Shown here: piece after piece, positions 20,206 through 64,000 of the stretch
Layout of the letters: every line of letters begins with the position of its first letter
Numbering within the stretch: position 1 is the stretch's first letter
Source: an uncultured Eubacteriales bacterium
GTDB taxonomy: Bacteria > Acidobacteriota > Aminicenantia > Aminicenantales > UBA8522
Assembly (NCBI GenBank): GCA_964580435.1
Contig: CAZOKP010000002.1
Location: forward strand, 2,919 to 66,918
Direction: 5' to 3'
DNA: 64,000 nt
Notes under the pieces: model-generated
What the model saw: the letters and a program-made list of their open reading frames with translations, nothing else
Database searches by the model: none
What the model was told of the DNA's origin: nothing
Translations under genes and position numbers: made by a program

Positions 20206-21237
20206 ATGAGTATGCTCAGCTGGTTCAAGGAAAGGCTCTTTTGTGACCTGGCCATAGACTTGGGAACGGCGAACACGCTCGTCTTCCTCAAAGGGAGGGG
20301 CATCATCGTCCAGGAACCTTCCATTGTCGTCGTCAATAAGACAACCGGGAAAGTCGAAGCCGTCGGGAGTCGGGCCAAGGAAATGCTGGGGAAAACGCCG
20401 GCTTCCGTCTCGGCGATCAAGCCAATGCGCGATGGAGTGATCGCCGACTTCGAGATTGCCGAGAAAATGCTCGACTATTTCATCAAAAAGGCGACCAACA
20501 ATCGAGGCTTTTGGCTGCGGCCGAGGATCGTCATCGGCATTCCCACGGGCATCACCCAGGTCGAGCGGCGGGCCGTGAAAGACGTGGCGATGAGGGCCAA
20601 AGCTTCGGAGGTCTATCTCGTGGAGCAGCCAATAACGGCAGCGGTGGGAGCGGACCTCCCGATTTCTGACCCGACAGGGAACATGATCGTCGACGTCGGC
20701 GGCGGCACCACCGATATCGCCATCATATCTCTCGACGGGATCGTCTTCAATCATTCCATCAGGATCGCCGGAAACGAGATGGACGAGGAGATCATCCAAT
20801 ACCTGAAGAAAAAGTACAACCTGCTGATCGGCGAGAAGAGCGCCGAATTTGTCAAGATCCAGATCGGGTCGGCCTATCCTTTGGATGAGCCCTTGACCAT
20901 GGAGATCAAAGGACGTGATCTTCGCGAGGGGATACCCAAGACCATCGTTATTGACGATCAGGAAATACGAGAGGCCCTCGAGGACGTCGTCGCCGCCATC
21001 GTCAATGCCGTCAGGATTGCCTTGGAGAAGACCCCTCCCGAGCTTTCTGCCGATATCATCGACCGCGGCATTGTCTTGACCGGCGGCGGGGCCCTTCTCA
21101 AGAACCTTGACAAACGCTTGCGCGAGGAAACTCAGTTGCCTGTTTTCGTCACCGATGACCCTCTGACCAGCGTCGTGCTCGGAGCGGGCAGGCTCTTGGA
21201 TGACCTCGATCTCCTAAAAAAGATTGCTCTCGATTAG
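20206..21237 (+). CDS. mreB: Rod shape-determining protein MreB
   Basis: DLAIDLGTANTLVF actin-fold phosphate-1 motif is present. Confidence 0.95.
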   Translation: MSMLSWFKERLFCDLAIDLGTANTLVFLKGRGIIVQEPSIVVVNKTTGKVEAVGSRAKEMLGKTPASVSAIKPMRDGVIADFEIAEKMLDYFIKKATNNRGFWLRPRIVIGIPTGITQVERRAVKDVAMRAKASEVYLVEQPITAAVGADLPISDPTGNMIVDVGGGTTDIAIISLDGIVFNHSIRIAGNEMDEEIIQYLKKKYNLLIGEKSAEFVKIQIGSAYPLDEPLTMEIKGRDLREGIPKTIVIDDQEIREALEDVVAAIVNAVRIALEKTPPELSADIIDRGIVLTGGGALLKNLDKRLREETQLPVFVTDDPLTSVVLGAGRLLDDLDLLKKIALD

Positions 21238-21263
21238 AGAGGCGCGGGTTGAACTGAATCTTC

Positions 21264-22100
21264 ATGCCTTTTTCCCTGAAAGAGAGAAGAAAATTCGCCC
21301 TCTTTGCCGGGTTGATTTTTTTCCATCTGACCTTGATCTCTCTCCAGGTCCCCAAAGGAAACCAGCCGACATATTTTGAGCGCGCTTTTTTTGCCGTGTT
21401 TACCCCTGTCCAGCACGGGGTGGTCTCCTTCTTTCAGGGTGTGGGCAGGTTCTGGAAGGACTATTTTTATTTCCGCCACGTCCAGCGGCAGAATCAGGAA
21501 ATGCGGGATGAAATTTTTCTGCTTCGACAGGAGAACCAGGCCTTCCGAAATATGTTGCTGAAGTTCAAGAGCGAGAAAGAGATCCAGGAACGGCTGGCGA
21601 CGATTTCTCGCTCCATCCTTGTCTGTTCTGTGATCGGGTTTAATTCGAGCGAGATCTATAAATCTGTCGTTTTGAATAGAGGCTCGCTCGATGGCCTGAA
21701 GAAGGATATGGTTGTCCTGGATAAGAAAGGCCGTCTTGTCGGACGCGTGATTGACCCGGTCTCTTTAAAGCAGGCGAGGGTCCAGCTCATTACCGATAAG
21801 GAAAGCGGAGTCGGGGTCCTCTCCGAACGCCAGAGGGTTGTCGGCGTCCTGACGGGCTACGCCGAAGGAAAATGTTTGATGAAGTATGTCCTCAGGACCA
21901 ACAAAGGCATCGAGGAGGGTGAGGAGGTCCGCACCTCAGGGTTTGAGGGCATCTACCCTGCAGAAATTCCGGTGGGGAAGATCATCTCCGTTACCGAGGA
22001 TGCCACCCTGTTCAAAAAAATCATCGTGGAACCGTATTTCGATTTTTCTGACCTGGATGAGGTGGCCGTTTTCACCATCGACCTGAGAGAATTATCGTAA
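21264..22100 (+). CDS. mreC: Rod shape-determining protein MreC
   Basis: N-terminal TM helix, coiled coil and C-terminal beta domain. Position immediately after mreB. Confidence 0.85.
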   Translation: MPFSLKERRKFALFAGLIFFHLTLISLQVPKGNQPTYFERAFFAVFTPVQHGVVSFFQGVGRFWKDYFYFRHVQRQNQEMRDEIFLLRQENQAFRNMLLKFKSEKEIQERLATISRSILVCSVIGFNSSEIYKSVVLNRGSLDGLKKDMVVLDKKGRLVGRVIDPVSLKQARVQLITDKESGVGVLSERQRVVGVLTGYAEGKCLMKYVLRTNKGIEEGEEVRTSGFEGIYPAEIPVGKIISVTEDATLFKKIIVEPYFDFSDLDEVAVFTIDLRELS

Positions 22101-22112
22101 AAGACAGGACGC

Positions 22113-22592
22113 ATGAAAGGTCTTTTTGAAGCCGTTGTGGGGATCATTCTTGCCGTTATCCTCGAGACCGTTCTCGGCAAGATCTCGGCGCCGCTCCTCT
22201 TTTTGTTCAATGCCTTTTCTTGGGTCGTTCTTTATTTCAGCCTGACCAAACACGAAGTCTTTGGGGCAGTCATGGGAACGGTCTGCGGGCTTCTCCAAGA
22301 TTCTTTTTCCCTGGGGATATTCGGCGTGGGCGGATTGACCAAGACCCTGCTGGGTTTCACGGCAGGGTTCGTTTCTCGAAAAATCAATGTGATCCCCGTG
22401 ACCCGCAATTTTGTTTTTCTTCTGATTGTTTCCTCCATCGAACTCGCGTTATGGAAATTCTTGGTCTTTTTTCTTTTCGGGGAGCGCTTTGCGCTGGGAG
22501 GCGGGCTCGCTTTGCTCCAGCCTCTAGTCACGGCGTTTTTCGTCACTCTCGTGTTCCAGATCGTGCGGAGGAAGAGGGGAGAGAGTTTATAA
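22113..22592 (+). CDS. mreD: Rod shape-determining protein MreD
   Basis: 159-aa polytopic membrane protein directly after mreC. Confidence 0.75.
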   Translation: MKGLFEAVVGIILAVILETVLGKISAPLLFLFNAFSWVVLYFSLTKHEVFGAVMGTVCGLLQDSFSLGIFGVGGLTKTLLGFTAGFVSRKINVIPVTRNFVFLLIVSSIELALWKFLVFFLFGERFALGGGLALLQPLVTAFFVTLVFQIVRRKRGESL

Positions 22593-22595
22593 GCC

Positions 22596-24398
22596 GTGAA
22601 AATAGAAAAAAATAGGTTCTACGAAGACCTCTCCCTCATCGTGCTGAGGGCGAGGCAGGTCTACTTTGCCGTGGGCGGTCTCTTTCTCCTCCTGCTTTTC
22701 TTTTTCTGGAAAGTCCAGGTCCTTGATTTCAAGAAATATTGGTCTCTTTCGGAAGCGAACCGCACCCGCGAGAGCGTCATCTCCGCTCCCCGCGGCCTGA
22801 TTACTGACCGGAATGACGTCATCCTCGCCGATAACGCCGGCTCTTTCAAAGCGTCATTTATCCGGGAGAACTGCCAGGATTTCGGGCGCTCCCTAGAAAA
22901 CATCAGCCGTCTTTTGCAGATCGAGGAAACCGACCTGCAAGCGAGGATCGCCAAGTACGCGTCTTTTCCTCTTTTCAAGCCGATTATTGTCAAGGACAAC
23001 TTGGACCTGCGGGAAGTCTCGCGGATCGAATCTAGGAAGCTGGAGTTCCCCGAGCTGGTGGTAGAAACCGACCCCAGACGATTCTATCCGTTTTCCACCG
23101 TGGCGGCTCATGTGATCGGCTATATGCAGGAGCTGACTCCCGAGGAGATGAAGTCGGATTTTTACAAAGGGAGAAATCTTGGTGATCTCGTGGGCCAAAC
23201 GGGTGTGGAGAAAGAATATGAATCTGTGCTGATTGGAGCCGACGGCAGATTGACCGAAGTCGTTGACAGTGTCGGACGAAGCCGCGGCGAAGTGGCGAGA
23301 GTCGATCCTGCACCGGGACACAACATCCAGCTCACGCTCGATTTCGACCTCCAGCGGAAAGCGACGGAATTGCTGGAGGGAAGGGAAGGGGCCATTGTCA
23401 TTCTGGACCCGCGCACCGGCGAGGTCTTGGCTCTGGCCAGCTTTCCGACGTATGATCCCAATAAGTTCATTGCCCGCTTTACTCCCAAGGAATGGATGGA
23501 CCTCATCAACCGGCCCGACGATCCTTTGGAGAATCGCGCCATTCGCGGCCTCTACGCGCCCGGGTCTGTTTTTAAGCCGACGATCGCCTTGGGTGCCCTG
23601 AGCAGCGGGCAGATTACCGAGCAGACGACTTTCTTCTGCGGGGGCACCACTCATTTTTACGGGCGCCCTTTTTCGTGCTGGTTTGCCGGAGGACACGGGG
23701 TCCAGAATTTGACCCAGGCCATCCAGCACTCCTGCAATATTTATTTTTACAACGCCGGCCGCAGATTGGGAGTCGAGAGGATCGCTGAATACGCCAAAAC
23801 CCTTGGCTTGGGCAGTCTCACGGGGATTGATCTGCCGGGTGAAAAAGAAGGCTTTGTCCCGACAGAAGAATGGAGTCGAAACGTCAGAAAAACAGACTGG
23901 TATCCGGGAGAGACGATTTCCCTATCCATCGGCCAGGGACCATTGCTTGTCACCCCGCTCCAAGTAGCCTTCCTTACTGCGATCTTGGCCAACCGCGGAA
24001 GAAAAGTCGTCCCCCATCTACTCAAGTTTCCGTCCCAGGCTCTGAAACAGGCGGAGGAGATATCGGATTCCCCCGCCAGAATAATCAGTGTCGGGACCTT
24101 CGAGAAAGTCATCAAAGGTATGTGGAAGTCTGTGAATGAGGGAGGCACGGGCCATTTCGCTATGGTTGAAGAATTTGATGTCTGCGGAAAGACAGGCTCG
24201 ACCCAACTCATCAGTAGAGAAAGAGCGGCGAAGCTGGGCAAGGAAATCAAACCCCATTCCTGGTTCACTGGTTTTGCTCCGCGGGACAATCCTCAGGTTG
24301 TGGTCACAGTCTTAGTCGAGTACGGGGGAATGGGGGGTACCACAGCGGCTCCACTCGCCAAGGAATTATTCAACCTGTACAAGAACAAATATGATTGA
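22596..24398 (+). CDS. mrdA: Penicillin-binding protein 2 (peptidoglycan D,D-transpeptidase), GTG start
   Basis: SVFKP (SxxK), HSCN (SxN) and KTGST (KTG) motifs are present. N-terminal TM helix. Confidence 0.9.
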   Translation: MKIEKNRFYEDLSLIVLRARQVYFAVGGLFLLLLFFFWKVQVLDFKKYWSLSEANRTRESVISAPRGLITDRNDVILADNAGSFKASFIRENCQDFGRSLENISRLLQIEETDLQARIAKYASFPLFKPIIVKDNLDLREVSRIESRKLEFPELVVETDPRRFYPFSTVAAHVIGYMQELTPEEMKSDFYKGRNLGDLVGQTGVEKEYESVLIGADGRLTEVVDSVGRSRGEVARVDPAPGHNIQLTLDFDLQRKATELLEGREGAIVILDPRTGEVLALASFPTYDPNKFIARFTPKEWMDLINRPDDPLENRAIRGLYAPGSVFKPTIALGALSSGQITEQTTFFCGGTTHFYGRPFSCWFAGGHGVQNLTQAIQHSCNIYFYNAGRRLGVERIAEYAKTLGLGSLTGIDLPGEKEGFVPTEEWSRNVRKTDWYPGETISLSIGQGPLLVTPLQVAFLTAILANRGRKVVPHLLKFPSQALKQAEEISDSPARIISVGTFEKVIKGMWKSVNEGGTGHFAMVEEFDVCGKTGSTQLISRERAAKLGKEIKPHSWFTGFAPRDNPQVVVTVLVEYGGMGGTTAAPLAKELFNLYKNKYD

Positions 24399-25479
24399 CC
24401 GGCGGCACATCGAGAACATTGACTGGTTCCTGATTATCCTTCTTGTCTTGATCTCTCTTGTCGGGGTCCTGGTCGTTTACAGTTCCTCTCATTACCTGCC
24501 GGGGAAGTATTATCTCAAACAGATGCTCTTTATCGGCGTTGGCCTGCTGCTTCTTTTCCTTTTTCTCGCCGTGGATTACAAGGTTTTAACGACCTATTCC
24601 TTTTATTTTTACGGCCTGATCGTGCTGGTCCTCGCGGGAATGCTGTTGTTCAGTCAACTCACGGCGAAGGAGAGCTGGATCAAGCTCAAGTATTTTCAGG
24701 TTCAGCCTTCCGAGCTGGCCAAGATCGCCCTCATTCTTGTCCTGGCCCAGATGTTTTCCGAATACAAGAGGAATTACGTCTCCCTGGGCGCCGTCCTGGC
24801 TAGCGGCGGACTCGCAGCCGCTTTTTTCATCTTGGTCGCTTTGCAGCCGGACCTGGGGACGGCGGTGAGCTTTCTCCCGCTGCTCTTGGGCGCCTTGATA
24901 CTTGCCGGATTAAAACGGAGAGCCCTGGTATTGATTCTTGTTTTATCGGTCTTGCTCGGCGTTGCCGGCTGGGATTTCTTCCTCAAGGATTATCAGAAAA
25001 AGAGGTTGACAACGGTTGTTTTTCCTGGGAAGGATCCCCGGGGATCCGGCTACCAAATCCTCCAGTCGAAAATCGCCATTGGCTCGGGAGGTTTTTCCGG
25101 AAAGGGGTTCAAAAAGGGGACGCAGAGCCAGCTGAGATTTCTGCCCGCCCGGCATACAGATTTTATCCTCTCCGTGGTCGGGGAAGAATTTGGGTTTCTC
25201 GGCGTGGCGGGGGTCTTGATGCTGTATTTTTTGTTTATTGCCAGGCTTTTCCATTCCGCCGCACAATCCAGGGACAGAACGGGCGTTTATATCATCTTCA
25301 TGGTCAGTTTGATGTTTAGTTTTCAGACTCTCGTGAATGTCGCCATGGTCATCGGGCTCTTCCCGATCGTCGGGATCCCCCTCCCCCTGCTCAGCTACGG
25401 AGGTTCCTCCCTTCTGACGAGCTTCCTGGCGGTCAGCCTTGTTTTGAATGTCAAAATGAGAAGGTTCGTCAATATTTAG
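24391..25479 (+). CDS. rodA: Rod shape-determining protein RodA (SEDS family peptidoglycan polymerase)
   Basis: FtsW/RodA/SpoVE family membrane protein. Overlaps mrdA by 8 nt. Confidence 0.9.
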   Translation: MIDRRHIENIDWFLIILLVLISLVGVLVVYSSSHYLPGKYYLKQMLFIGVGLLLLFLFLAVDYKVLTTYSFYFYGLIVLVLAGMLLFSQLTAKESWIKLKYFQVQPSELAKIALILVLAQMFSEYKRNYVSLGAVLASGGLAAAFFILVALQPDLGTAVSFLPLLLGALILAGLKRRALVLILVLSVLLGVAGWDFFLKDYQKKRLTTVVFPGKDPRGSGYQILQSKIAIGSGGFSGKGFKKGTQSQLRFLPARHTDFILSVVGEEFGFLGVAGVLMLYFLFIARLFHSAAQSRDRTGVYIIFMVSLMFSFQTLVNVAMVIGLFPIVGIPLPLLSYGGSSLLTSFLAVSLVLNVKMRRFVNI

Positions 25480-25482
25480 GGA

Positions 25483-28053
25483 ATGGGTCACGAACAAGAC
25501 CTCAAGGATATTCTCAAGCACGTCGAGAAGCCTGGCCGGTATATCGGCGGCGAGTGGAACGAAACAAGGAAGGATCCGGGGACCGTCGCGGCCAAGATCG
25601 CTCTTGTCTTTCCTGACGTCTATGAGATCGGCATGTCCTATTTGGGGCAGAAGATTCTCTATGACGTTCTCAACTCGCGCTCTTCGTTCTTAGCCGAGAG
25701 GGTTTTTACTCCCTGGCCCGACCTGGAGGAAAAACTCCGCTCTCGAAAGATGCCGCTCGTCTCCTTGGAGAACAAGATTCCGCTGCGCGACTTTGATATC
25801 CTCGGGTTTTCTCTGCTCTACGAGCTCAACTATTCTAACATTTTGACGATCTTGGACCTCGGGGGCATCCCTTTCTTAGCGGAAGAACGCGAGGATGACG
25901 GCCCTTTGATTATCGCCGGGGGACCGGCCGCATTCAATCCCGAGCCGGTGTCGGATATCTTTGACGCTTTTTTCCTGGGAGACGGGGAAGAGGGATTTCC
26001 CGAAATCGCCGAAAAATATGTTTTCTTGCGAAAAAGTGGAGCCAGAAAAGACGAGATCTTGAACAACCTGGCCAAGATCCGTGGCGTCTATGTTCCCCGT
26101 TTGTACGGCTGTTTTGAGCCTCCTTGTTCTTCGCTCCTGGCGCGGTGGCCCAAAAACAGAGCACCTGACCGGATCAAAAAAAGGGTCATTGCTCCGCTGG
26201 GAAAAGTTCCCTTCCCGGAGAAGATCGTGGTCCCGGACGTTCAAGTCGTTTTTGACCGTGTGGCCGTTGAGGCGAGCAGAGGATGTCCGCAGAGATGCCG
26301 ATTCTGCCAGGCCACCCAGGTCTATTTTCCTTTCAGGATCCGCAGCCCTTCTTCTCTGCTAGAAAGCGTCTGCGGCAGCCTGCGTTCCACGGGCTATGAG
26401 GATGTTTCTCTGTCCGCTCTCTCGGTCAGCGATTACCCTTACCTGGAAGGAACTGTCGAGGCTCTTATGGAAAGATTGGCCGGGCGGAGAATCGCTCTCT
26501 CCTTATCCTCGCTCCGGCCCCAGGGGTTGACTTCCGCCCTGGCAGATAACATCCTCAGAGTGAGAAAGACCGGGTTCACCCTGGTGCCCGAAGCCGGGAC
26601 AGATAGGCTCCGTCGGGTCATTAACAAAAACCTTAAAAACCAGGACATCCTCGATGCGGCGGCCCATGCGTTCAACCGCGGCTGGCAGCTTCTCAAGCTC
26701 TATTTCATGGTCGGCCTTCCTACCGAGACGCAGGAAGATTTAGAAGGAATCGTCCGGTTGTGCGGAGAGATCATCCGGATGGGGAAGACCATGATGAAGT
26801 CGCCTCCTCGAATAAACCTCAGCCTTTCTTCTTTTATTCCCAAGCCGCACACACCCTTCCAGTGGCTGGCCATGGAGACTGGGGAGAGCCTCGAGGAGAA
26901 ACAAAAATTCGTCCGCTCCCGGCTCCGTCAGTTCCGGTCAATCAAGATAAAGGACCATCCGACTCATACCTCCATCCTGGAGGGAGTTTTTTCCAGAGGA
27001 GACAGGAGGCTTGGACCCGCGCTTGTCCAGGCCTGGAAAAAGGGCGCCCGGTTCGACAGCTGGAAAGACTGGTTTTCCTTTTCTCCTTGGGAGGAATCGT
27101 TCAGGGCAGAGAATTTGGACTACAGAATCTATCTTGGCCCTCTTGACACGGCCGCCCCCCTTCCCTGGGACCACATCGATACGGGGATCAAAAAGAGCTT
27201 CCTTCTGGCCGAGCTCGAAAAAGCTTTGGCGGCAGAGACAACACCTTCCTGCCTTGAAGCCAGTTGCAGCCAATGCCAGGCCTGCGATGCGGAGCTCCGC
27301 CCCCCCAAAAAGTTTCCCCGGGAGCGCGAGTCAAGAGCCCGAAAATTTTCTTTTTTTGGAGAGCGCGCCGATCGAGTCCTGCGCTATGAGCTGACTTATT
27401 CCAAGTCCGGCTGGGCCCGGTACTTGTCCCATCTCGACCTCGCCAACCGCCTCCAGAGGACTCTACGCCGGGCAGGAATCGAGCTCGCTTTTTCTCAAGG
27501 TTTTCACCCCAAAATGCTCGTCTCCTATGGACCGGCGCTTCCGCTGGGCACGGAAGGAAAGGCCGAGTGCTTCGAGTTCAAGTCGGCGTATCATTTTGAT
27601 GAAATGGGATTCATCCGGCGCCTCAATAGATATGCCGGGCAGGGGATCAGGTTCTCCTTGCTGAGAAAGATGCCGGAGTCTGCTCGGACCTTGAATGAAA
27701 GGATCAAGGGGATGATCTACTCCGTGGACCTCGGGGATCCCGACATAGGGAAAGCGCTCGAAACCAGAAAGCGAGAGAAGGACAGAGTGCGAGTCGGCGA
27801 TGCTGAGTTCGTCAGGGAAGAAATGGCCGAGCTTTGGACGCAGACTCCCGAAGCCCTGAAGAGCTTTTGGGTGGACAAAAAGAAGCAGCGGATCTTCCTG
27901 TGCCTGCCTTATATATCTTACCGCGGTCTCCGCTCCCAGGATATCGTCGCAAAAGTTTTTGGCTTGTCCTCTCCCGCATTCTATCTGAAGCGGGAACGGT
28001 TTGTTTTCGAGGGAGAGGAAAAAATTGACTTTAAGCAATCTTCCAGTATATAA
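25483..28053 (+). CDS. Fusion protein: B12-binding-domain radical SAM protein (TIGR03960-like) fused to a radical-SAM-associated DUF2344 domain (TIGR03936-like)
   Basis: PGRYIGGEWN N-terminus and CPQRCRFC (CxxxCxxC) cluster motif are present. The C-terminal ~250 aa (YELTYSKSGWARYLSHLDLANRLQRTLRRAGIELAFSQGFHPK) is DUF2344-like. One uninterrupted 856-codon ORF. Confidence 0.85.
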   Translation: MGHEQDLKDILKHVEKPGRYIGGEWNETRKDPGTVAAKIALVFPDVYEIGMSYLGQKILYDVLNSRSSFLAERVFTPWPDLEEKLRSRKMPLVSLENKIPLRDFDILGFSLLYELNYSNILTILDLGGIPFLAEEREDDGPLIIAGGPAAFNPEPVSDIFDAFFLGDGEEGFPEIAEKYVFLRKSGARKDEILNNLAKIRGVYVPRLYGCFEPPCSSLLARWPKNRAPDRIKKRVIAPLGKVPFPEKIVVPDVQVVFDRVAVEASRGCPQRCRFCQATQVYFPFRIRSPSSLLESVCGSLRSTGYEDVSLSALSVSDYPYLEGTVEALMERLAGRRIALSLSSLRPQGLTSALADNILRVRKTGFTLVPEAGTDRLRRVINKNLKNQDILDAAAHAFNRGWQLLKLYFMVGLPTETQEDLEGIVRLCGEIIRMGKTMMKSPPRINLSLSSFIPKPHTPFQWLAMETGESLEEKQKFVRSRLRQFRSIKIKDHPTHTSILEGVFSRGDRRLGPALVQAWKKGARFDSWKDWFSFSPWEESFRAENLDYRIYLGPLDTAAPLPWDHIDTGIKKSFLLAELEKALAAETTPSCLEASCSQCQACDAELRPPKKFPRERESRARKFSFFGERADRVLRYELTYSKSGWARYLSHLDLANRLQRTLRRAGIELAFSQGFHPKMLVSYGPALPLGTEGKAECFEFKSAYHFDEMGFIRRLNRYAGQGIRFSLLRKMPESARTLNERIKGMIYSVDLGDPDIGKALETRKREKDRVRVGDAEFVREEMAELWTQTPEALKSFWVDKKKQRIFLCLPYISYRGLRSQDIVAKVFGLSSPAFYLKRERFVFEGEEKIDFKQSSSI

Positions 28054-28081
28054 GGGAAAGAAATTAAAGGAGGAGGATACC

Positions 28082-29236
28082 GTGATCGATTTCAGCTTGA
28101 GTGAGGAGCAGCTGGCCCTTCAAGAAATGGCCCGGGAGTTCGCCCAGAAGGAAATGAAGCCCAATGCGGCCAAGTACGACAAAGGAGGGGAATTTCCTGA
28201 AGAGGTCATGAAGAAGGCTTTTGAAGCGGGATTTATCACCTGCAATATTCCCCAGGAATATGAAGGGGGAGGACTGAAGGAGCTTGAGATTGCCATCATC
28301 TCCGAGGAACTGGCCGCCGGCTGCGCGGGAATGTTCACGACCATCATGGCCAGCTCGCTCGCCTTCACGCCCATCATCCTATTCGGCACCGATGAGCAGA
28401 AAAAGCAATTCCTGACGCCGTTCACCAAAAGGATGTCGTTTTCCTCTTTTTGCCTGACGGAAAGAGAAGCGGGCTCGGACGCCTCATCGCTCAAAACCAC
28501 GGCTAGGAAGGTCGGCTCGGAATACGTCATCAACGGTTCCAAGTGTTTCATCACCAACGGCGGGATTGCCAGCCTCTACGTTGTTTTCGCCAACTCCGCC
28601 CCTGAAAGAGGCCCGCGTGGCGTCAGTGCCTTCCTGGTGCCCAGGGAAACTCCGGGCATCACTGTAGGTAAAGAGGAAGACAAAATGGGGCATCGGGCTT
28701 CTAATACCACGGAGCTCTTCTTCGAGGACGTCAAAATTCCTGAGGCCAATCTTCTGGCGAAAGAAGGGCTGGGTTTTCTCGTCGCCATGAGAACCCTGGA
28801 CAAGACACGGGCTTCGGTCGGTGCCGCTGGTGTCGGCGTGGCCCGGACAGCTCTCGAATACGCTATCGAATATGCCAAGACGAGAGTCCAGTTCGGCAAA
28901 CCCATCGCCCTTTTTCAGAATACAGCCTTCAAGATCGCTCAGATGGCCATGGAGGTCAATGCCGCGCGCCATCTCGTTTGGCATTCAGCCTGGCTGATGG
29001 ATCAGGGCAAGCCGTGTGGAAAAGAGTCCGCTATGGCCAAATGCTTTGGCTCGGATGTCGCCATGCGCACGACCGTCGAGGCGGTGCAGCTTTTCGGCGG
29101 CTATGGCTATATGAAGGATTATCCTGTCGAGAAGCTGATGCGTGATGCCAAGCTGCTGCAGATCTATGAAGGGACCAATGAGATTCAGCGTTTGGTGATT
29201 TCTCGCGAGGTCATCGGCCCGATCAAAGAGAAATAA
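28082..29236 (+). CDS. Acyl-CoA dehydrogenase (short/branched-chain type)
   Basis: ACAD N-terminus (DFSLSEEQ), middle and C-terminal (QIYEGTNEIQR) signatures are present. Start is GTG, preceded by AAAGGAGGAGG. Confidence 0.9.
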   Translation: MIDFSLSEEQLALQEMAREFAQKEMKPNAAKYDKGGEFPEEVMKKAFEAGFITCNIPQEYEGGGLKELEIAIISEELAAGCAGMFTTIMASSLAFTPIILFGTDEQKKQFLTPFTKRMSFSSFCLTEREAGSDASSLKTTARKVGSEYVINGSKCFITNGGIASLYVVFANSAPERGPRGVSAFLVPRETPGITVGKEEDKMGHRASNTTELFFEDVKIPEANLLAKEGLGFLVAMRTLDKTRASVGAAGVGVARTALEYAIEYAKTRVQFGKPIALFQNTAFKIAQMAMEVNAARHLVWHSAWLMDQGKPCGKESAMAKCFGSDVAMRTTVEAVQLFGGYGYMKDYPVEKLMRDAKLLQIYEGTNEIQRLVISREVIGPIKEK

Positions 29237-29245
29237 AAAGCGCGG

Positions 29246-29722
29246 TCAGATTTTGCCCTGAATGATCTTCAACAGGTCCTCTTCCACAGAGGTCTGGGGC
29301 GTTTCGATGATGCGGCCGGCTTCCTGGCCCCGGATGGTTACGATAAAAGTCGGTATCCTCTGAATGCCTTTTCCCTGGATGTATTTGGCCCGGTCTTCCT
29401 TTTTTTGAGGAAGCCCGACATAGGTTGGCCGGATCAGCGGATTCTGGACCATGTCCATGATCTTGAAATACGCGCTCACGTTCTGCTTGCTATCAGGGCA
29501 CCACGTCCCGAGGAAGACCTCGATTAGGATTTCTTCGTTGACGGCCTGCAGCCTGCTGATGATTTCAAGGTTAGGGGAATAAGACTCGACCACAGTCTTC
29601 CAGTCGGGGAGATTCTGAAGAATTTCATCCTGGGTGAGCTCACCCAGAAGTTCGACTTGACCGGAGAGAAGTGCAGCCAGAAGGGCTATGGCAAAGGCTG
29701 AGAAAACGAATTTTCTGGGCAT
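29246..29722 (-). CDS. Secreted thioredoxin-fold protein (WCPDS active-site-like motif)
   Basis: Signal peptide MPRKFVFSAFAIALLAALLSG, then FLGTWCPDSKQ. Confidence 0.7.
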   Translation of the reverse strand: MPRKFVFSAFAIALLAALLSGQVELLGELTQDEILQNLPDWKTVVESYSPNLEIISRLQAVNEEILIEVFLGTWCPDSKQNVSAYFKIMDMVQNPLIRPTYVGLPQKKEDRAKYIQGKGIQRIPTFIVTIRGQEAGRIIETPQTSVEEDLLKIIQGKI

Positions 29723-29757
29723 CGTCTAGGGCGGAGAAAGCGAGAAGGGGGAGAGAA

Positions 29758-30153
29758 CTAGGATGTTTCTTCGGTAAAATATTCCGGTATGATTCCCAGG
29801 ACCTCCACTCCTGCTCCCTTGGCGATATCAATCAGTTCGACGACCTGGCTGTAGGGGACTTTGGCATCAGCTCTGATGAAGATTGTCTTATCCTGGCGCG
29901 CGGAGTAAATGGCTCTGAGCCGGTCCGGGAGCATTTTAAGGTCGATCTGCTCCTGGTTGATCAGGACACTCATGTCTTTCTTCAGGGTTAGAACGATCAG
30001 TCCCGTGGGCATTCCTCCGCCCGTCTCAGCTGTGGTCTCCGGGAGTTTGACATCGATCCCTTTTTGGACGATGGGGGTTATCACCATGAAAATAATAAGC
30101 AGAACGAGCAAGACATCGCACAGCGGCACGACATTGGGTTCAGCTCTTGCCAT
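29758..30153 (-). CDS. exbD: Biopolymer transport protein ExbD/TolR (orphan; no exbB/tolQ partner adjacent)
   Basis: NVVPLCDVLLVLLIIFMV is the ExbD TM signature. I used the internal ATG (MARAEPN) preceded by AAGGAGGT. The ORF track extends to 30189. Confidence 0.85.
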   Translation of the reverse strand: MARAEPNVVPLCDVLLVLLIIFMVITPIVQKGIDVKLPETTAETGGGMPTGLIVLTLKKDMSVLINQEQIDLKMLPDRLRAIYSARQDKTIFIRADAKVPYSQVVELIDIAKGAGVEVLGIIPEYFTEETS

Positions 30154-30187
30154 ATTGACCTCCTTATGGTTTACTCTCTGGACGTTC

Positions 30188-30217
30188 ATTGTATGATAAA
30201 GATTTTTGCTTTGTCAA
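30188..30217 (-). promoter_or_regulatory. Candidate promoter for exbD (-35 TTGACA, 18-nt spacer, -10 TACAAT on the minus strand)
   Basis: Read from the reverse complement of the divergent intergenic region. Confidence 0.3.
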
Positions 30218-30257
30218 TGACCAAATGGGATCGGAGACTTCCGGCGCAAAGTGCAGG

Positions 30258-30286
30258 GCGTTGCAATTTTTCCCGGGTGCGAGTAT
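30258..30286 (+). promoter_or_regulatory. Candidate promoter for the TIGR04076-like gene (-35 TTGCAA, 17-nt spacer, -10 TATAGT)
   Basis: Sequence ttgcaatttttcccgggtgcgagtatagt is followed by AGGAGGAGGG and the ATG. Confidence 0.35.
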
Positions 30287-30309
30287 AGTGGATTGAGAAA
30301 GGAGGAGGG

Positions 30310-30582
30310 ATGAGAGATTTAAAAATCGAAGTTGTCAAAGTCAAGGAGCGTTGTGGGGCCAAGCACAAGCCCGGCGATACGTTTTTCATCAGAGGAGCCG
30401 GGACGATTGAGATCCCCGCGGGCAAGAAAGTTTGCATCTTCGCCCTCAATAGCCTTTTCCCCTTCTTGACGACCAAGCAGAGAGAAGAGGAACTTCCTGG
30501 AGACGATTGGATCTCCGAGACGGAACTCTTGACTTGCCCTGACCCGAAGGGCGTGATTTTCAAAGTCATTCCGCTCGCTTAG
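30310..30582 (+). CDS. TIGR04076-family small Cys-containing protein (90 aa)
   Basis: MRDLKIEVVKVKERCGAKHKPGDTF...CIFAL...FPFL...LTCPDPKGVIFKVI matches the TIGR04076 pattern. Strong ribosome-binding site. Confidence 0.7.
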   Translation: MRDLKIEVVKVKERCGAKHKPGDTFFIRGAGTIEIPAGKKVCIFALNSLFPFLTTKQREEELPGDDWISETELLTCPDPKGVIFKVIPLA

Positions 30583-30668
30583 AGAATCTCCCAGCGAAAT
30601 CGCCAAGATTCAGGCGCAGAAAGAAGCGAAGGGTCAGTTCTTTTTACTGGATTTGTCGGGACGCCGGT

Positions 30669-31064
30669 CTATTGGAGCGTTTCCAGCGCTTTTTTTGGAT
30701 TGCTCGTCCTGAAAACCAGAAGGGCTCTGCCTAACCCGGCGGACGTGCCATAGCAATAGTCGATATCGATCACGGCGTTGCCGAGCAAGGCTCCGATCTC
30801 AGCCCCGGCACCAATCCGGTCCCCGATCTCGATCGTGACCACCTTGTTCGTTTTAACTTTATAGCCCAAGGACTTGAGAGCTTTCTCCGCTTTTTTGTTG
30901 TCGGCTGTGATCAGCAGGAAATGGCCCTTGTCTTTATCAGAATAAGCGCTCAGGGCTTTGAGATTCACTCCGGCGTTGGCCAGGGTTCCCAGAACGCGGC
31001 CCAGAATTCCGGGCTCATTGGGCGTGATGACATGCAGCTGTGTTTCGATCTCGACTTTGTGCAC
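30669..31064 (-). CDS. ACT-domain protein (tandem ACT regulatory domains)
   Basis: Two ~65-aa segments beginning ITPNEPGILGRVLGTLANAGVNL and TIEIGDRIGAGAEIGALLGNAVIDI are ACT-like. Confidence 0.7.
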   Translation of the reverse strand: MHKVEIETQLHVITPNEPGILGRVLGTLANAGVNLKALSAYSDKDKGHFLLITADNKKAEKALKSLGYKVKTNKVVTIEIGDRIGAGAEIGALLGNAVIDIDYCYGTSAGLGRALLVFRTSNPKKALETLQ

Positions 31065-31165
31065 GGCTCAACCTCCTTGTTGGAGAAAGGATTATACCAA
31101 AATCCGAGGGCAAAAGACAAAAAAACAAAAAAAATGTCTTCTTGTTTTCAGGTGGAGCGGATATA

Positions 31166-31894
31166 ATGAGGCATCTCTGCCGAGTTAGAAAAATGACGAG
31201 AGAAGGTGCGCGGGTCGCGATCATTGACAACTCTATTGACCCGGCGGTCTACAAGCCTATCGACCACTGGAGGGAGTTTCTCGGCGTTCCTTGGGAGGCC
31301 TTCCGCGCGGCCGAGAGCTGCTTTCCCAACCTGGATAAAAAATACACGCACCTTATCCTGACCGGTTCGGAAGCGTCCATTCTGGAAAGAGAAAACTGGG
31401 TGCATGAAGAGGTGGAGGTTGTCCAAGAGGCCCTCGATCGTGGGATTCCCATCTTGGGAAGCTGCTATGGCCACCAGCTCCTGGCCCTGGCGCTGCGCGG
31501 CCCGGCCCATGTCCGGCGCTGCCCCCAGCCTGAGGTGGGCTGGATTCCGGTCATGATCGAGAAAAATAACGACCTCCTGGGTGACGAGGGTGAAGCCTAT
31601 ACTTTTGCCCTGCATTTCGATGAGGTCATCGGCCTGGATGATGACTTTGTTGTCCTGGCTTCAACTCCCGCCTGCCGCGTGCAGGCCTTCGCGCTCAGGA
31701 CTCAGCCCGCCTGGGGAATTCAACCCCACCCGGAAATCAACGTTTCCGCGGCCAGAGAGCTTCTCCAAAATCTTATCCGTCTCGAGCTCAAGACTTCGTT
31801 TTTATATGAGGAGGCCCTGACAATGAGGCCCTGGGATTCGGGGCTCATCCGCAGGATTGTCCACCATTTTCTAGCCTCGTGCGAGAGGCTTTGA
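31166..31894 (+). CDS. Class I (type 1) glutamine amidotransferase-like protein
   Basis: GSCYGHQLLALAL carries the nucleophile Cys elbow; a His follows later in the chain. Start is uncertain (ATG 31166 or 31193). Confidence 0.8.
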   Translation: MRHLCRVRKMTREGARVAIIDNSIDPAVYKPIDHWREFLGVPWEAFRAAESCFPNLDKKYTHLILTGSEASILERENWVHEEVEVVQEALDRGIPILGSCYGHQLLALALRGPAHVRRCPQPEVGWIPVMIEKNNDLLGDEGEAYTFALHFDEVIGLDDDFVVLASTPACRVQAFALRTQPAWGIQPHPEINVSAARELLQNLIRLELKTSFLYEEALTMRPWDSGLIRRIVHHFLASCERL

Positions 31895-31939
31895 AATTAG
31901 GGCGCGTCTCGAGAAAAAAAAGTAAAAACAGGGGGCAAT

Positions 31940-32101
31940 GTTTTTTCTTGACAAAAGTGCTTTTTTTTATTATCTAACATAGAGAAACCTAAGGGATTAT
32001 GTCTCTAATTGTATCGGACCAAAGTCCAGCTAACCTTTCGATTTCCTTTTTATGGAAAGGGAAATATTACTGCATAATAATCATCTAAAAAGGAGGCGCC
32101 G
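31940..32101 (+). promoter_or_regulatory. AT-rich promoter / 5-prime UTR island upstream of the PKD-barrel gene (TTGACA -35 at about 31948; long leader with hairpin ttccttttt..aaagggaa)
   Basis: About 30% GC over 200 bp in a 58-60% GC genome. AAAGGAGG Shine-Dalgarno before a GTG start. Confidence 0.3.
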
Positions 32102-33568
32102 GTGAAAAACCATAAGTTTGCATTTTTTGTCATTTTCATTCTTGTCGTTTTTTCCTTGAACATCTTCGCTGAAACAAAGCTCACGACCATCGGAAGGTAC
32201 ACTTTTGTGCGGATCAAAGGGAAGATCCCCACGCAGGACGTCATGAAGATGCTGATCGACAGGTATGCCGCCGACATCAAGTATGGTTTTGATCAGGCGG
32301 GGTACGGGGACCTGTATCTTCCTTTCCTGGACCAGTTGAAAGCGGCGCCATTCGAAGAAAGATCATTGCCCGTGGGCGACAAGCTCATGTGGATGCTCTT
32401 CCGCTCTCAGGGAAAAGTCAAGGTCGCCCGGGACATCGAGTGGGCCGGCAAGGCGCCCCTGGAGGTCTTCGTTTTCAACGTGAAGAAGGATGATAAAAAT
32501 TACGAATTTGTCATGCCGAGGCCGTGCGGCAACATTGCTCTCCGCGGCATAACACAGCTGGAGATGGAGAAGCCCGCGGCCGTCTGCGCCATCACCGTGA
32601 CTCCTGCCAAGGTCAACTTGAAAGACCCGGTGACAGTGGACATGAGCGGATCCCAGAACGCTGTATCGATGGAAGTAGCAGTCATGGGACCGGACGGGGC
32701 CAAGATTGCCACTCACGCCTTCACGCCTGAATCTTCCAAATGGCAGACAAGCTTTGACCAACCGGGAAATTATACCTTCAAAGCCCAGGCCACAAACGAG
32801 GACGGCAAGGCTTCAACAAATCCCTGTGAAGCCAAGGTTTTTGTCAACGCTCCGCCGACCTGCCAGCTGAAAACATCCTGCCTGCCTTGCAAGAATTTTG
32901 TCGGGAAGCCTATGACCATCGACGCCTCCGGCTCGACGGACCCCGACGGCAAAGTGGTCAAGGCGGATTTCGCCATCACCGACACGGCCGGCAATCCCGT
33001 CGACAAGTTCATTGACAACGAACCTCCTCTCACCTGGGAATATATTTTCAAGAAGCCCGGCTCCTATGCCGTGACGGTTGTTGTGACCGATGATTTTGGG
33101 GCCGTCTCCGAACCTTGCCGTGTTGTCCTTGATGTTACCCAGAAGCGGCTGTTCTTCCTGGTGGAAGGCGGCCCGGGTCTTCTGCGGGGGACCTACACCA
33201 CCATGCTCTGGGCCCGTCTCGGCCTGCTCTACAAGATCGTCCCCGACACCCTCGACCTGATCCTGTCCTTCGGACCCGGCATCCCGCTCAGGGGTGAGCC
33301 CTGGAAGACCTTCGTCATGGGCAATGTCCTTCTGAACGTCCATGCCGGTCCGGCTTTCCTGGCTGGCGGTTTGGGCTTCAGCACCAAGGAACAGGAAACC
33401 CGCAAGGGCGGCATCGACCTGGTCTTCCAGGTTGGCGTCGACCTGTTCAAGTCCGGCAGTTCCTCGGTCGGGTCGATTTTCGGCGAGCTGCGCGCTCCGG
33501 TCATCACCGAGAATCGTTCTTTCGACGAGCATCACAAACTGCTCCTTGGTTTCCGGTACATCTTCTGA
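32102..33568 (+). CDS. Secreted protein with two PKD-like Ig repeats and a C-terminal outer-membrane beta-barrel-like domain ending in Phe
   Basis: Signal peptide MKNHKFAFFVIFILVVFSLNIFA. PKD repeats: MTIDASGSTDPDGKVV...YAVTVVVTDDFGAVSEP. C-terminal alternating amphipathic strands end in RYIF. Confidence 0.7.
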   Translation: MKNHKFAFFVIFILVVFSLNIFAETKLTTIGRYTFVRIKGKIPTQDVMKMLIDRYAADIKYGFDQAGYGDLYLPFLDQLKAAPFEERSLPVGDKLMWMLFRSQGKVKVARDIEWAGKAPLEVFVFNVKKDDKNYEFVMPRPCGNIALRGITQLEMEKPAAVCAITVTPAKVNLKDPVTVDMSGSQNAVSMEVAVMGPDGAKIATHAFTPESSKWQTSFDQPGNYTFKAQATNEDGKASTNPCEAKVFVNAPPTCQLKTSCLPCKNFVGKPMTIDASGSTDPDGKVVKADFAITDTAGNPVDKFIDNEPPLTWEYIFKKPGSYAVTVVVTDDFGAVSEPCRVVLDVTQKRLFFLVEGGPGLLRGTYTTMLWARLGLLYKIVPDTLDLILSFGPGIPLRGEPWKTFVMGNVLLNVHAGPAFLAGGLGFSTKEQETRKGGIDLVFQVGVDLFKSGSSSVGSIFGELRAPVITENRSFDEHHKLLLGFRYIF

Positions 33569-34583: not shown

Positions 34584-34994
34584 TTATTCCCCACCTATTC
34601 TCTTCAATAACTGCTCGGGCATGGACGATACTTCCGCTTTTGCGTTGGTCACGATATGAACCGTATAACCGGAGGCGATGAGCCTTCGTCCATCCTTGGT
34701 CAGGAGTCCGTAATCGAATACCACTTTTTTGGGCGTTATCTCGCGGAGGGAGACACGAATCACAAAAACGTCATCATAGCGGAGCGGTCTTCTGTACTTG
34801 CAGAAGGCCTCAACGACCACAAGATAGAATCCCAGGGTTTCGATTTCCTCATAGGGGACTCCTCTGTGGCGGCAGAACTCGGTGCGGCCGATCTCGAACC
34901 ATTCAAAATAGCTCTTGTTATGGGCCACTCCCATCTGGTCTGTTTCCGAATAGCGGACCCTCTCTTCAATCTCGATCACAGGGTTCATGGACAC
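34584..34994 (-). CDS. Acyl-CoA thioesterase (YbgC/4HBT hotdog fold)
   Basis: YSETDQMGVAHNKSYFEWFEIGRTEF is the 4HBT-family N-terminus. Confidence 0.85.
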   Translation of the reverse strand: MSMNPVIEIEERVRYSETDQMGVAHNKSYFEWFEIGRTEFCRHRGVPYEEIETLGFYLVVVEAFCKYRRPLRYDDVFVIRVSLREITPKKVVFDYGLLTKDGRRLIASGYTVHIVTNAKAEVSSMPEQLLKRIGGE

Positions 34995-56435: not shown

Positions 56436-57260
56436 TTAAAAGAGAATGGCCATCCCCCAGATCAATTTCGAGTGGGATCGCCTGTTTCCCAGGGGGCTTG
56501 TTTCCGTGTCCGCCCAGATGCCTGTTCCCGCAGCGAGCTGGAGCCATTCCGTCAGGTTGAACCGGAAAATCAAGTCGGCGATCAATGTCTGTCCTATATT
56601 GAACACCGTGTCAGACTGGACAATAACCTGCAAGCTCGCCGTGACGTTTTTCCCCAATTGAGCGCCGGCGCGCAATCCGTATTCCTGCCTGACCTTGCCC
56701 CCGGAGAGGTCGAGATGGGTTCGCTGGTTGGTATGATGGAAGAACCAGGCAAAAGGCTCAATCACATAGTCCTTGCCTTGAAAAGGTACGCTGAACCCGA
56801 TGTAGTTCCGGTTCGTGTAATAGGGCTTTCCATTCAGATAGCTGGTGTGGTCGGCGTCATGGTCAGAATCATGCCCGAGAATCAGCGTGAGATGCTCGAA
56901 GATCTCCTGATGAAACGAGAAGTGCCAGTCGAATTTTGTCCTTTGACCACCGTCGTCGTGCGTAAGAAGCTGGAAATCTAAGGCGGTGGTGCGAGTCAAG
57001 AATATGAAGGTGCGAAACCCGAAGTTCCAGCGGTCTTCCGGCCCGGTGAGGTCATTATAGCTGGGGTACGTGGACGGGAGCTGCAACTGGCCGAAGAATT
57101 CGCCATGGACCAGGACTTTTTTGTCCGGACCAAGCGGAAATTTCTGTTCGAAAGGGCGGTAAAGAAAGAGCTCATAGCCGGGAAGTGCCGGCGGCAGAAG
57201 CGCCGCGGCCAGCCAGAAGAATAGTAAACCTATCGATTTAATAAAATATTTAGAATTCAT
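56436..57260 (-). CDS. His-rich outer-membrane beta-barrel protein (hypothetical)
   Basis: Signal peptide MNSKYFIKSIGLLFFWLAAALLP. HDSDHDADH and FFHH clusters. C-terminal ...MAILF. Confidence 0.55.
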   Translation of the reverse strand: MNSKYFIKSIGLLFFWLAAALLPPALPGYELFLYRPFEQKFPLGPDKKVLVHGEFFGQLQLPSTYPSYNDLTGPEDRWNFGFRTFIFLTRTTALDFQLLTHDDGGQRTKFDWHFSFHQEIFEHLTLILGHDSDHDADHTSYLNGKPYYTNRNYIGFSVPFQGKDYVIEPFAWFFHHTNQRTHLDLSGGKVRQEYGLRAGAQLGKNVTASLQVIVQSDTVFNIGQTLIADLIFRFNLTEWLQLAAGTGIWADTETSPLGNRRSHSKLIWGMAILF

Positions 57261-60108: not shown

Positions 60109-60260
60109 ATATTTCCCATTTTTGACTGGCGCTGTCAAGAATTTCTATGACGAAAGCGGCATCGCGTTTCGGCGGCTTTCAATATTTAAGAAAAGAAATT
60201 ATAATGAGCCCTTGCCAAGTAGTGAAAAAAAGGCATGCCTTTCTTGTGAAGGAGGGAGCC

Positions 60261-63272: not shown

Positions 63273-63416
63273 TTTTTCTTGGACGGAAAGCGAGACACGG
63301 CCTGCAGCCGCCTGCTTGTGACAGCCTATTATGAGAAATATTAGAAAAATTGTCAAAATGTTTGCAAAATTCGATCTCATTTTATAAAATATTTGCCGTT
63401 ATTCGGAAAAAACGAC

Positions 63417-63761
63417 GTGGTCGAAACCTTTTTGGTCTTTGCGGTCTTCGGTTTGCTGGGTCTTGTCCTGATTTTCATGAATAGGATCCTGGGGCCTTCT
63501 CGGCCAAACCCGACCAAAGACAAACCCTTTGAGTGCGGCAGCCCTTACCTGAGGGAGGACATCAACCCTTTCCCGATCAAGTTCTATCTGGTCGCCTTCA
63601 TTTTCCTGCTTTTTGATATCGAGGTCGTCTTCTTTTTCCCCTGGGCCCTTATTTTTAGGGAGATGATTACGAGCGCCCTCATCATCATGGCGGCCTATAT
63701 TTTTGTGTTGGTAATCGGGTTTGTCTACGCCTGGAAGAAGGGCGCTTTCGAGTGGGAATGA
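63417..63761 (+). CDS. nuoA: NADH-quinone oxidoreductase subunit A
   Basis: Three TM helices and PFECGSPYL motif. Probable GTG start; the ORF track begins at 63393. Confidence 0.85.
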
Positions 63762-63774
63762 AAAAAGGTCAGCC

Positions 63775-64000
63775 ATGTCGGAGATGAAGAAAAAGCACCG
63801 GCCGCCGGCCCAGTTCATCACGACCCAGTTCAATACCATGCTCGGCTGGGCCAGGAAATATTCCTTGTTCCAATATCCTTTTATCACGGCGTGCTGCGGC
63901 ATGGAGTACATGTCGGCCGCCTGCGCCCATTTTGACCTCGACCGTTTCGGCGCGGGTTGGACCCGCTTTTCTCCGCGGCAGGCGGATATGCTTCTTGTGG
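63775..64000 (+). CDS. nuoB: NADH-quinone oxidoreductase subunit B (3-prime partial, runs off the window)
   Basis: Translation gives [14 protein letters not shown]...[26 protein letters not shown], the NuoB Fe-S N2 region. AAAAGG ribosome-binding site. Confidence 0.85.

Follow-up and report, generated by a model that had tools for sequence, protein, structure and literature searches.

An exbD gene without a local motor partner is paired with a thioredoxin-fold gene throughout the sampled Candidatus Aminicenantes

What does an ExbD protein serve when no gene for a motor partner lies beside its own? The question is raised by a 64,000-nucleotide stretch of contig CAZOKP010000002.1 (the window, in which all positions are counted), where an exbD gene, here called exbD2, stands next to trx9, a gene for a protein of the Thioredoxin_9 family. 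To our knowledge, the ExbB–ExbD and TolQ–TolR motors are the only known means of energy delivery to the periplasm and outer membrane in diderm bacteria, and the range of partners able to plug into the motor pentamer is an active research question. An initial annotation of the window had taken this ExbD for an orphan and had placed it in an accessory patch of five small genes of alternating orientation, with trx9 and genes for a TIGR04076 small protein, an ACT-domain protein and a class-I GATase. The best explanation of what we find, to which we give a probability of roughly 0.6, is instead that exbD2 and trx9 form an operon whose ExbD2 product shares the ExbB motor of a distant locus.

Genes were called from the open reading frame (ORF) listing of the window together with Pfam and NCBIfam profile searches, which bear out all five of the families named (Thioredoxin_9, ExbD, TIGR04076, ACT and GATase1). 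The trx9 gene (29246-29722, minus strand) encodes 158 aa that match PF14595 at 38 bits against a cut-off of 25, and exbD2 (29758..30153, minus strand, PF02472, in an ORF reaching up to 30189) lies 35 nt away on the same strand. As the two are co-directional and so closely spaced, we predict an operon with exbD2 as its first gene rather than alternating genes; the strands of the five genes run minus, minus, plus, minus, plus. The first ATG of the exbD ORF abuts the end of the −10 hexamer TACAAT, and the start is therefore placed at ATG 30153 (MARAEPNV..., with AAGGAGG ahead), giving a protein of 131 aa, the same as the gene call on the contig of a relative (locus L002).

Exact-protein look-ups and a scan with a Trx9 alignment, restricted to one genome per species, yielded 80 loci, which were scored with the window proteins over 10 kb on either side of each match. 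Forty-five are species-level Aminicenantes loci, with Trx9 identities from 80% down to 39%, and 35 come from other lineages; the Trx9 and TIGR04076 homologues are named Candidatus Aminicenantes wherever a name is given. In every one of the 45 Aminicenantes loci exbD lies directly upstream of trx9 on the same strand, so that the pairing, which had been remarked upon as unusual, recurs across the group, and it is specific to this phylum. A set of metagenome-assembled genomes (MAGs) titled ‘uncultured Eubacteriales bacterium’ (L008-L011, L018, L020, L023, L024, L028, L029, L034, L037 and L049) display full Aminicenantes synteny at 46-80% Trx9 identity, and their taxon label looks wrong.

Is ExbD2 then an orphan? 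Neither the Pfam profiles (PF01618 and TonB) nor phmmer with Pfam-verified Aminicenantes ExbB and TonB queries found an ExbB, TolQ or TonB in the 64-kb window, the same phmmer queries found no ExbB or TonB within 10 kb on either side of the pair in the 45 related species, and approximate E. coli TolQ and ExbB queries gave no phmmer match at the loci. The adjacent ExbB/TolQ partner that marks the usual neighbourhood of a PF02472 protein is thus missing for ExbD2, and the initial observation that exbB and tonB are lacking nearby stands for the window and for the surroundings of every relative's locus. The claim that the gene is truly orphan fares differently, as two Aminicenantes genomes with exbD-trx9 also hold tonB-exbB-exbD1 elsewhere. 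An exhaustive search of representative sequences with ExbD returned a compact orthologue group followed by ordinary ExbD/TolR proteins at 40-50% identity, and one of the latter, P0263, has a membrane helix almost exactly that of the window ExbD. P0411, of the P0263 family, is encoded on the 4,283,307-bp chromosome OY970261.1, which also carries exbD-trx9. On this chromosome exbD2-trx9 lies at 1.59 Mb (L027) and tonB-exbB-exbD1 at 2.21 Mb (L088), 0.6 Mb apart; at the second locus yajC-secD-secF is followed by genes for a 259-aa TonB (membrane helix, poly-Pro stretch, PF03544 at 9e-18), ExbB (PF01618) and ExbD1. The same two loci occur in GCA_049697115.1, as L042 (exbD2-trx9) and L091 (tonB-exbB-exbD1). 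We found no paper linking Aminicenantes with ExbD. A YbgC/FadM thioesterase gene at 34584-34994 was considered as a Tol-Pal remnant and set aside, as its product reached only the subfamily model and not the tol-pal equivalog.

ExbD2 has the single N-terminal transmembrane helix with an Asp that characterises ExbD/TolR proteins, and it matches PF02472 at 90.5 bits (cut-off 25.4, E 1e-25) over profile positions 5-123 of 128. Its best NCBIfam model is TolR TIGR02801, at 95.9 bits and below the equivalog cut-off of 127.3, and it likewise falls below the equivalogs for ExbD of TonB systems (PRK11267, 77.1 versus 216; TIGR02803, 75.6 versus 153; TIGR02804, 45.9 versus 123). The membrane helix, AEPNVVPLCDVLLVLLIIFM.ITP with its proton-binding Asp, shows at least 90% conservation among 47 orthologues; its PLCDVLLVLLIIFM segment aligns with what we take to be D23 of E. 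coli TolR and D25 of E. coli ExbD. In the same orthologues the periplasmic head has conserved positions of its own and an acidic PEYFTEE tail, and the orthologue alignment contains no Cys in the periplasmic part. ExbD2 and ExbD1 are 41-43% identical overall, with about 30 of 37 residues shared in the N-terminal and membrane segment and about 28% identity in the periplasmic part. The near-identity of the membrane helices suggests that ExbD2 is a second ExbD, one that may plug into the ExbB of ExbD1 and carry a different periplasmic output.

Two side observations concern the ExbD proteins. Both Aminicenantes ExbDs have a Cys directly before the essential membrane Asp (PLCDV), at 30115-30123 in the window (ExbD2 residues 11-13, L-C-D) and in ExbD1 of L088, at a position where the E. 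coli TolR and ExbD presumably have Leu or Ile. Furthermore, P0254 (737 aa, on an 18.4-kb Logan contig) and P0284 (389 aa, partial, MCK4825955.1) are fusions without ExbD membrane helices in which periplasmic domains like those of ExbD1 and of ExbD2, the latter with the PEYF tail, are combined with a YbbR domain. P0254 additionally contains a TonB C-terminal domain of the Aminicenantes type, and its N-terminus resembles Zn phospholipase C at a score below the Pfam cut-off. These proteins may be an artefact, or they may point, in the manner of a ‘Rosetta stone’, to joint action of the two ExbD heads and TonB.

The mechanism that we favour may be outlined as follows. ExbD2 would be a duplicated ExbD that kept the pore-fitting helix and proton-binding Asp of ExbD1 as its periplasmic head diverged. 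Dimerised with itself or with ExbD1, it could insert into the ExbB pentamer supplied by the distant tonB-exbB-exbD1 operon, and the one proton-driven motor would thereby gain a second output. Trx9 would be co-transcribed with exbD2 and, as predicted, exported. Several points weigh against this scheme. The tonB-exbB-exbD1 operon was seen in only two relatives and not in the window's own genome, and another ExbB/TolQ, including one without an ExbD of its own, could be the true partner of ExbD2. Docking in the ExbB pentamer is deduced from one feature, the near-identity of the helix with that of ExbD1. With no periplasmic Cys, ExbD2 itself should not be a substrate of Trx9. None of the 35 closest Trx9 homologues outside Aminicenantes (30-41% identity) lies within 10 kb of an ExbD, and the Trx9 family therefore does not need ExbD. 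Lastly, rigid gene order across the region may account in part for exbD2 and trx9 lying side by side, since conservation of the flanking genes is almost as high as that of the pair.

This last point is the starting place for an explanation without any functional coupling, by which exbD2 came to lie upstream of trx9 in the ancestor of the Aminicenantes and the pair was preserved by co-transcription and slow rearrangement, ExbD2 serving as a redundant spare for ExbD1. Several genes without evident functional ties to the pair are conserved almost as strictly: among the Aminicenantes loci that could be scored, an acyl-CoA dehydrogenase gene is convergent on trx9 in 41 of 43, the TIGR03960 radical SAM gene is found in 39 of 40 and rodA in 31 of 32, and the exbD2-trx9 pairing is missing from every other phylum sampled. 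A redundant spare would, however, hardly be expected to have conserved head positions and a PEYFTEE tail unlike those of ExbD1, which argues for a distinct ExbD2 function under selection, and insertions pile up just upstream of exbD2 yet never separate it from trx9. We consider uncoupled retention unlikely, and we keep to an ExbD2 that shares a distant motor and has Trx9 as its constant genomic companion.

What Trx9 may contribute is best approached through its active site. The initial description of a secreted thioredoxin-fold protein is consistent with the PF14595 match, the WCPDS site and a signal-peptide-like N-terminal helix, the latter recognised by inspection of the sequence. The AlphaFold model (pLDDT 84) shows a thioredoxin fold built around a beta-alpha-beta core and is matched best in the Protein Data Bank (PDB) by 1z6n, the Pseudomonas aeruginosa protein PA1234, to which no function is assigned; a sequence search of PDB chains gave marginal thioredoxin matches only. 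PA1234 resembles Trx9 in its PF14595 domain, its fold and its N-terminal helical extension, and differs in that the window Trx9 has a predicted signal peptide and a monothiol CPDS site; because the function of PA1234 is unassigned, it offers no functional transfer. The Trx9 active site, TWCPDS at residues 73-78, lacks the CxxC dithiol of classical thioredoxins and DsbA, and the predicted cis-Pro loop, with the motif PTF, is conserved. Orthologues carry CPDS (46), CPDC (40), CPDT (14), CSDT (13) or CSDS (6), and W74, C75, D77 and P124-T125-F126 are invariant in 28 sequences. As the second active-site residue may be Cys, Ser or Thr, a dithiol cycle is not required, and since the nucleophilic Cys is invariant and the resolving Cys dispensable, Trx9 probably works by single-Cys chemistry or as a periplasmic binding protein.

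Outside Aminicenantes, trx9 has other neighbours. In 15 of the 35 loci it directly follows the gene for RodZ (HTH_25 plus RodZ_C) on the same strand, a pair found in KSB1, Calditrichota, Zhuqueibacterota and MAGs labelled ‘Cytophagia’ (L054, L056-L058, L060, L062, L064-L066, L072, L074, L075, L081, L086 and L087; in loci of full length the Trx9 match lies near 10001). The pair stands in two flanking contexts, Maf-RodZ-Trx9-Mur ligase-R3H and RecJ-RodZ-Trx9-GGT, and is thus conserved through rearrangement; we found no description of it in the literature. The remaining homologues outside the phylum follow TatC, an M23 peptidase and rhomboid, a cyclophilin, a kinase or a cytochrome. Together with the rod-shape genes near the Aminicenantes operon, the RodZ links hint at an envelope role for Trx9.

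A more definite envelope reading would make the Trx9 clade an accessory of cell-wall elongation. ExbD2 would then be a bitopic partner, TolR-like and facing the peptidoglycan, and would stand in the genome where other phyla have RodZ. It can call upon the recurrence of RodZ-Trx9 in two contexts, the distance of just 3.7 kb between the Aminicenantes operon and mreBCD-PBP2-rodA, and TolR as the best NCBIfam match of ExbD2; moreover, no RodZ turned up in the window or, over a span limited to 10 kb on either side, in the related loci. The TolR score is nonetheless below the equivalog cut-off and the ExbD2 membrane helix matches that of the Ton-operon ExbD1, other Trx9 homologues adjoin TatC, proteases, kinases or cytochromes, and synteny alone may explain the proximity to the rod genes. 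On balance this seems to us quite unlikely. Less probable again is a composite in which ExbD2 forms a second, TonB-independent output of ExbB with Trx9 as its client and the Trx9 clade is an unrecognised accessory of the elongation machinery, so that proton-driven thiol coupling would take place in the periplasm at the elongasome. It would draw on the links of Trx9 to RodZ (KSB1, Calditrichota and related phyla) and, in Aminicenantes, to ExbD2 and the rod genes; we regard the composite as very doubtful.

Transcription of the predicted operon is likely to begin at a promoter of its own. Both of the promoters quoted in the initial annotation were recovered by a consensus scan and are conserved in 29 related species. 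That of exbD2 (TTGACA-18-TACAAT, 30217..30188, minus strand) has 11 of 12 consensus matches and is followed by a 5′ untranslated region with AAGGAGG, and that of the TIGR04076 gene (TTGCAA-17-TATAGT, 30261..30289, plus strand) has 9 of 12 and is followed by AGGAGGAGGG / AAGGAGGAGGG and ATG. The number of promoter-like sites is not significant by itself, with 5 seen against 2.5 ± 1.5 expected. The divergent intergenic region between the two genes can, however, be aligned across 29 species with both −35/−10 hexamers and both ribosome-binding sites in register, which raises the two promoters from consensus matches to phylogenetic footprints: the exbD2 TTGACA is kept in 29 of 29 orthologous regions, with TA(C/A)AAT in nearly all, and the relatives' TIGR04076 promoters keep a TTG.. 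−35, a TATA(G/T) −10 and AAGGAGG in register. The scan also predicts an ACT promoter, TTGTCT-18-(TG)TATAAT (31120..31091, minus strand), followed by AAGGAGGT and GTG.

How, then, do the other three genes relate to the pair? The TIGR04076 gene (30310-30582, plus strand) encodes 90 aa scoring 58.5 bits against an NCBIfam cut-off of 33 over positions 1-86 of 91, with both of the motifs first pointed out in it, ERCGAKH and CPDP. Across the phylum the protein is 73-98% identical and C15, H19, C42 and C76 are invariant. A sequence search of PDB chains gave noise only for this protein, a relaxed Pfam scan of 27 members found no XdhC and no other family, and the literature holds incidental mentions only of what is an uncharacterised family. 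Those mentions include one archaeon and one occurrence next to a glycyl-radical enzyme cluster, and the family is therefore not dependent on ExbD. The gene is indeed a neighbour of the pair in 27 of 43 Aminicenantes loci, as a co-occurrence check proposed at the outset would have it, but it is dispensable, being missing from the other 16. On its far side lies the gene for a stand-alone ACT-domain-pair protein (30669-31064, minus strand, GTG start, 131 aa; PF19571 at 50 bits, cut-off 23.5), which is found upstream of exbD on the same strand in 36 of 36 loci with enough flank. The divergent gene beyond it encodes a stand-alone class-I GATase (31193..31894, plus strand, ORF from 31040; PF00117 at 57.2 bits, cut-off 22.8) with GSCYGHQ (catalytic Cys) and HPE motifs and with PRK09065 and GuaA-N-like matches below the equivalog cut-offs; its start is most likely ATG 31193, giving 233 aa as in relatives, with 31167 as an alternative. 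The divergent arrangement of ACT and GATase is conserved in 27 of 31 Aminicenantes loci, and the four species without GATase (L016, L022, L027 and L036) keep ACT.

Between ACT and exbD the distance varies from 70 bp to 6.9 kb in Aminicenantes. This interval (30154-30668 in the window, 4197-9559 in L004, 3734-9585 in L006 and 9439-9540 in L016) is a variable slot that holds nothing, TIGR04076 alone, or TIGR04076 with CstA, OPT and a PYNP_C-domain (PYNP-like) gene, the CstA and OPT transporter genes lying between TIGR04076 and ACT in several lineages. TIGR04076 and GATase are hence facultative neighbours under promoters of their own and ACT is a constant upstream neighbour beyond the insertion slot, and because exbD-trx9 is the only invariant pair the five genes do not form one functional module.

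Nor is the region accessory. The order mreBCD-PBP2-rodA, radical SAM, acyl-CoA dehydrogenase, trx9-exbD ... ACT/GATase, PKD and rmlD is common to the 45 species-level genomes, and this shared order across Aminicenantes species makes the region a conserved core chromosomal segment of separate transcription units. In the window the flank from mreB, mreC, mreD, PBP2 and rodA through a fused TIGR03960/TIGR03936 radical SAM gene to the acyl-CoA dehydrogenase gene occupies 20206..29236 on the plus strand; the fused protein (25483-28053), whose TIGR03960 part is a B12-binding radical SAM, comes directly after rodA, and this is the gene whose position was counted above. The GC content of the block is flat at 0.52-0.53 in 2-kb windows (range 0.50 to 0.58 over the 64 kb), no mobile-element genes occur at the block, and the remainder of the window is housekeeping in character (sucC, aconitase, fmt/def, infB/nusA/truB, a proton-pumping pyrophosphatase, recN, BamD, nuoA and others). 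With unremarkable GC, housekeeping flanks and phylum-wide synteny down to 39% Trx9 identity, the marks of a genomic island are lacking. A defence-island reading was likewise dropped, as PADLOC returned zero matches for the five proteins, and an Rfam scan of 28500-32500 found no family at E <= 1. At the right end of the window (63399-64000, plus strand) nuoA and the beginning of nuoB are overlapped by a longer, spurious minus-strand ORF.

These counts bear on the most ambitious proposal for the locus, in which a truly orphan ExbD couples the proton-motive force to thiol redox by Trx9 within a five-gene accessory patch, with TIGR04076 and an ACT-regulated amidotransferase in the module and plug-less barrels perhaps energised by it. 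Tight linkage of exbD and trx9 and the lack of a local exbB or tonB are in keeping with it, as is a 962-aa protein encoded at 57250-60138 (minus strand), which matches CarboxypepD_reg at its N-terminus and has no Plug, TonB_dep_Rec or NCBIfam match and probably belongs to the ‘plug-less barrel’ group named in the initial annotation. Against this stand the core position of the block, the dispensability of TIGR04076 and GATase, the transporter genes inside the supposed patch in some lineages, the tonB-exbB-exbD1 operon elsewhere in relatives and the wider distribution of TIGR04076. The synteny counts already largely refute this proposal, and we hold it to be highly improbable. The 274-aa protein encoded at 56436-57260, beside the 962-aa protein, has zero family matches.

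For annotation it follows that an ‘orphan’ ExbD of this kind should not be taken for the sign of a broken Ton system and that the five genes should not be treated as an island or a single module, and exbD2-trx9 offers a clean natural case for asking if one motor serves several outputs. Among known systems, ExbD/TolR dimers sit in the pentamer pore through a transpore helix with an essential Asp (PMC12204202). In the TPH-vWA proteins described in the same work, 5:2 motors accept alternative Asp-helix partners in atypical gene arrangements, which is the likeness to our case; there, however, motor genes lack an ExbD neighbour, whereas here an ExbD with an ordinary head lacks a motor neighbour. 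Similarity to TolQ-TolR of Tol-Pal lies in TIGR02801 as the best model and in the topology and Asp of ExbD2, which nevertheless scores below the equivalog cut-off, has a helix matching ExbD of the tonB-exbB operon, and has no tolQ, tolA, tolB or pal near its gene. For TIGR04076, the XdhC/CoxF-type cofactor-insertion proteins (PDB 2we7 and 3on5) are a lead only, with no sequence-level similarity at 12% identity.

Another comparison is with Ton motors that have extra ExbD paralogues, as in the exbB-exbD1-exbD2 set of Xanthomonas campestris (PMC3551730), the multiple Ton sets of Helicobacter pylori (PMC13367063), and Stenotrophomonas and Riemerella. As in these, a second copy with transpore helix and Asp exists beside a canonical TonB-ExbB-ExbD set. 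The Aminicenantes copy differs in being detached from the motor operon, by 0.6 Mb in OY970261.1, and in having, phylum-wide, its own conserved sigma-70-type promoter and a partner gene for a thioredoxin-fold protein that is predicted to be exported. On the present evidence exbD2-trx9 would be a lineage-specific variant of a known system, in which we infer that one ExbB motor is shared between two ExbD outputs.

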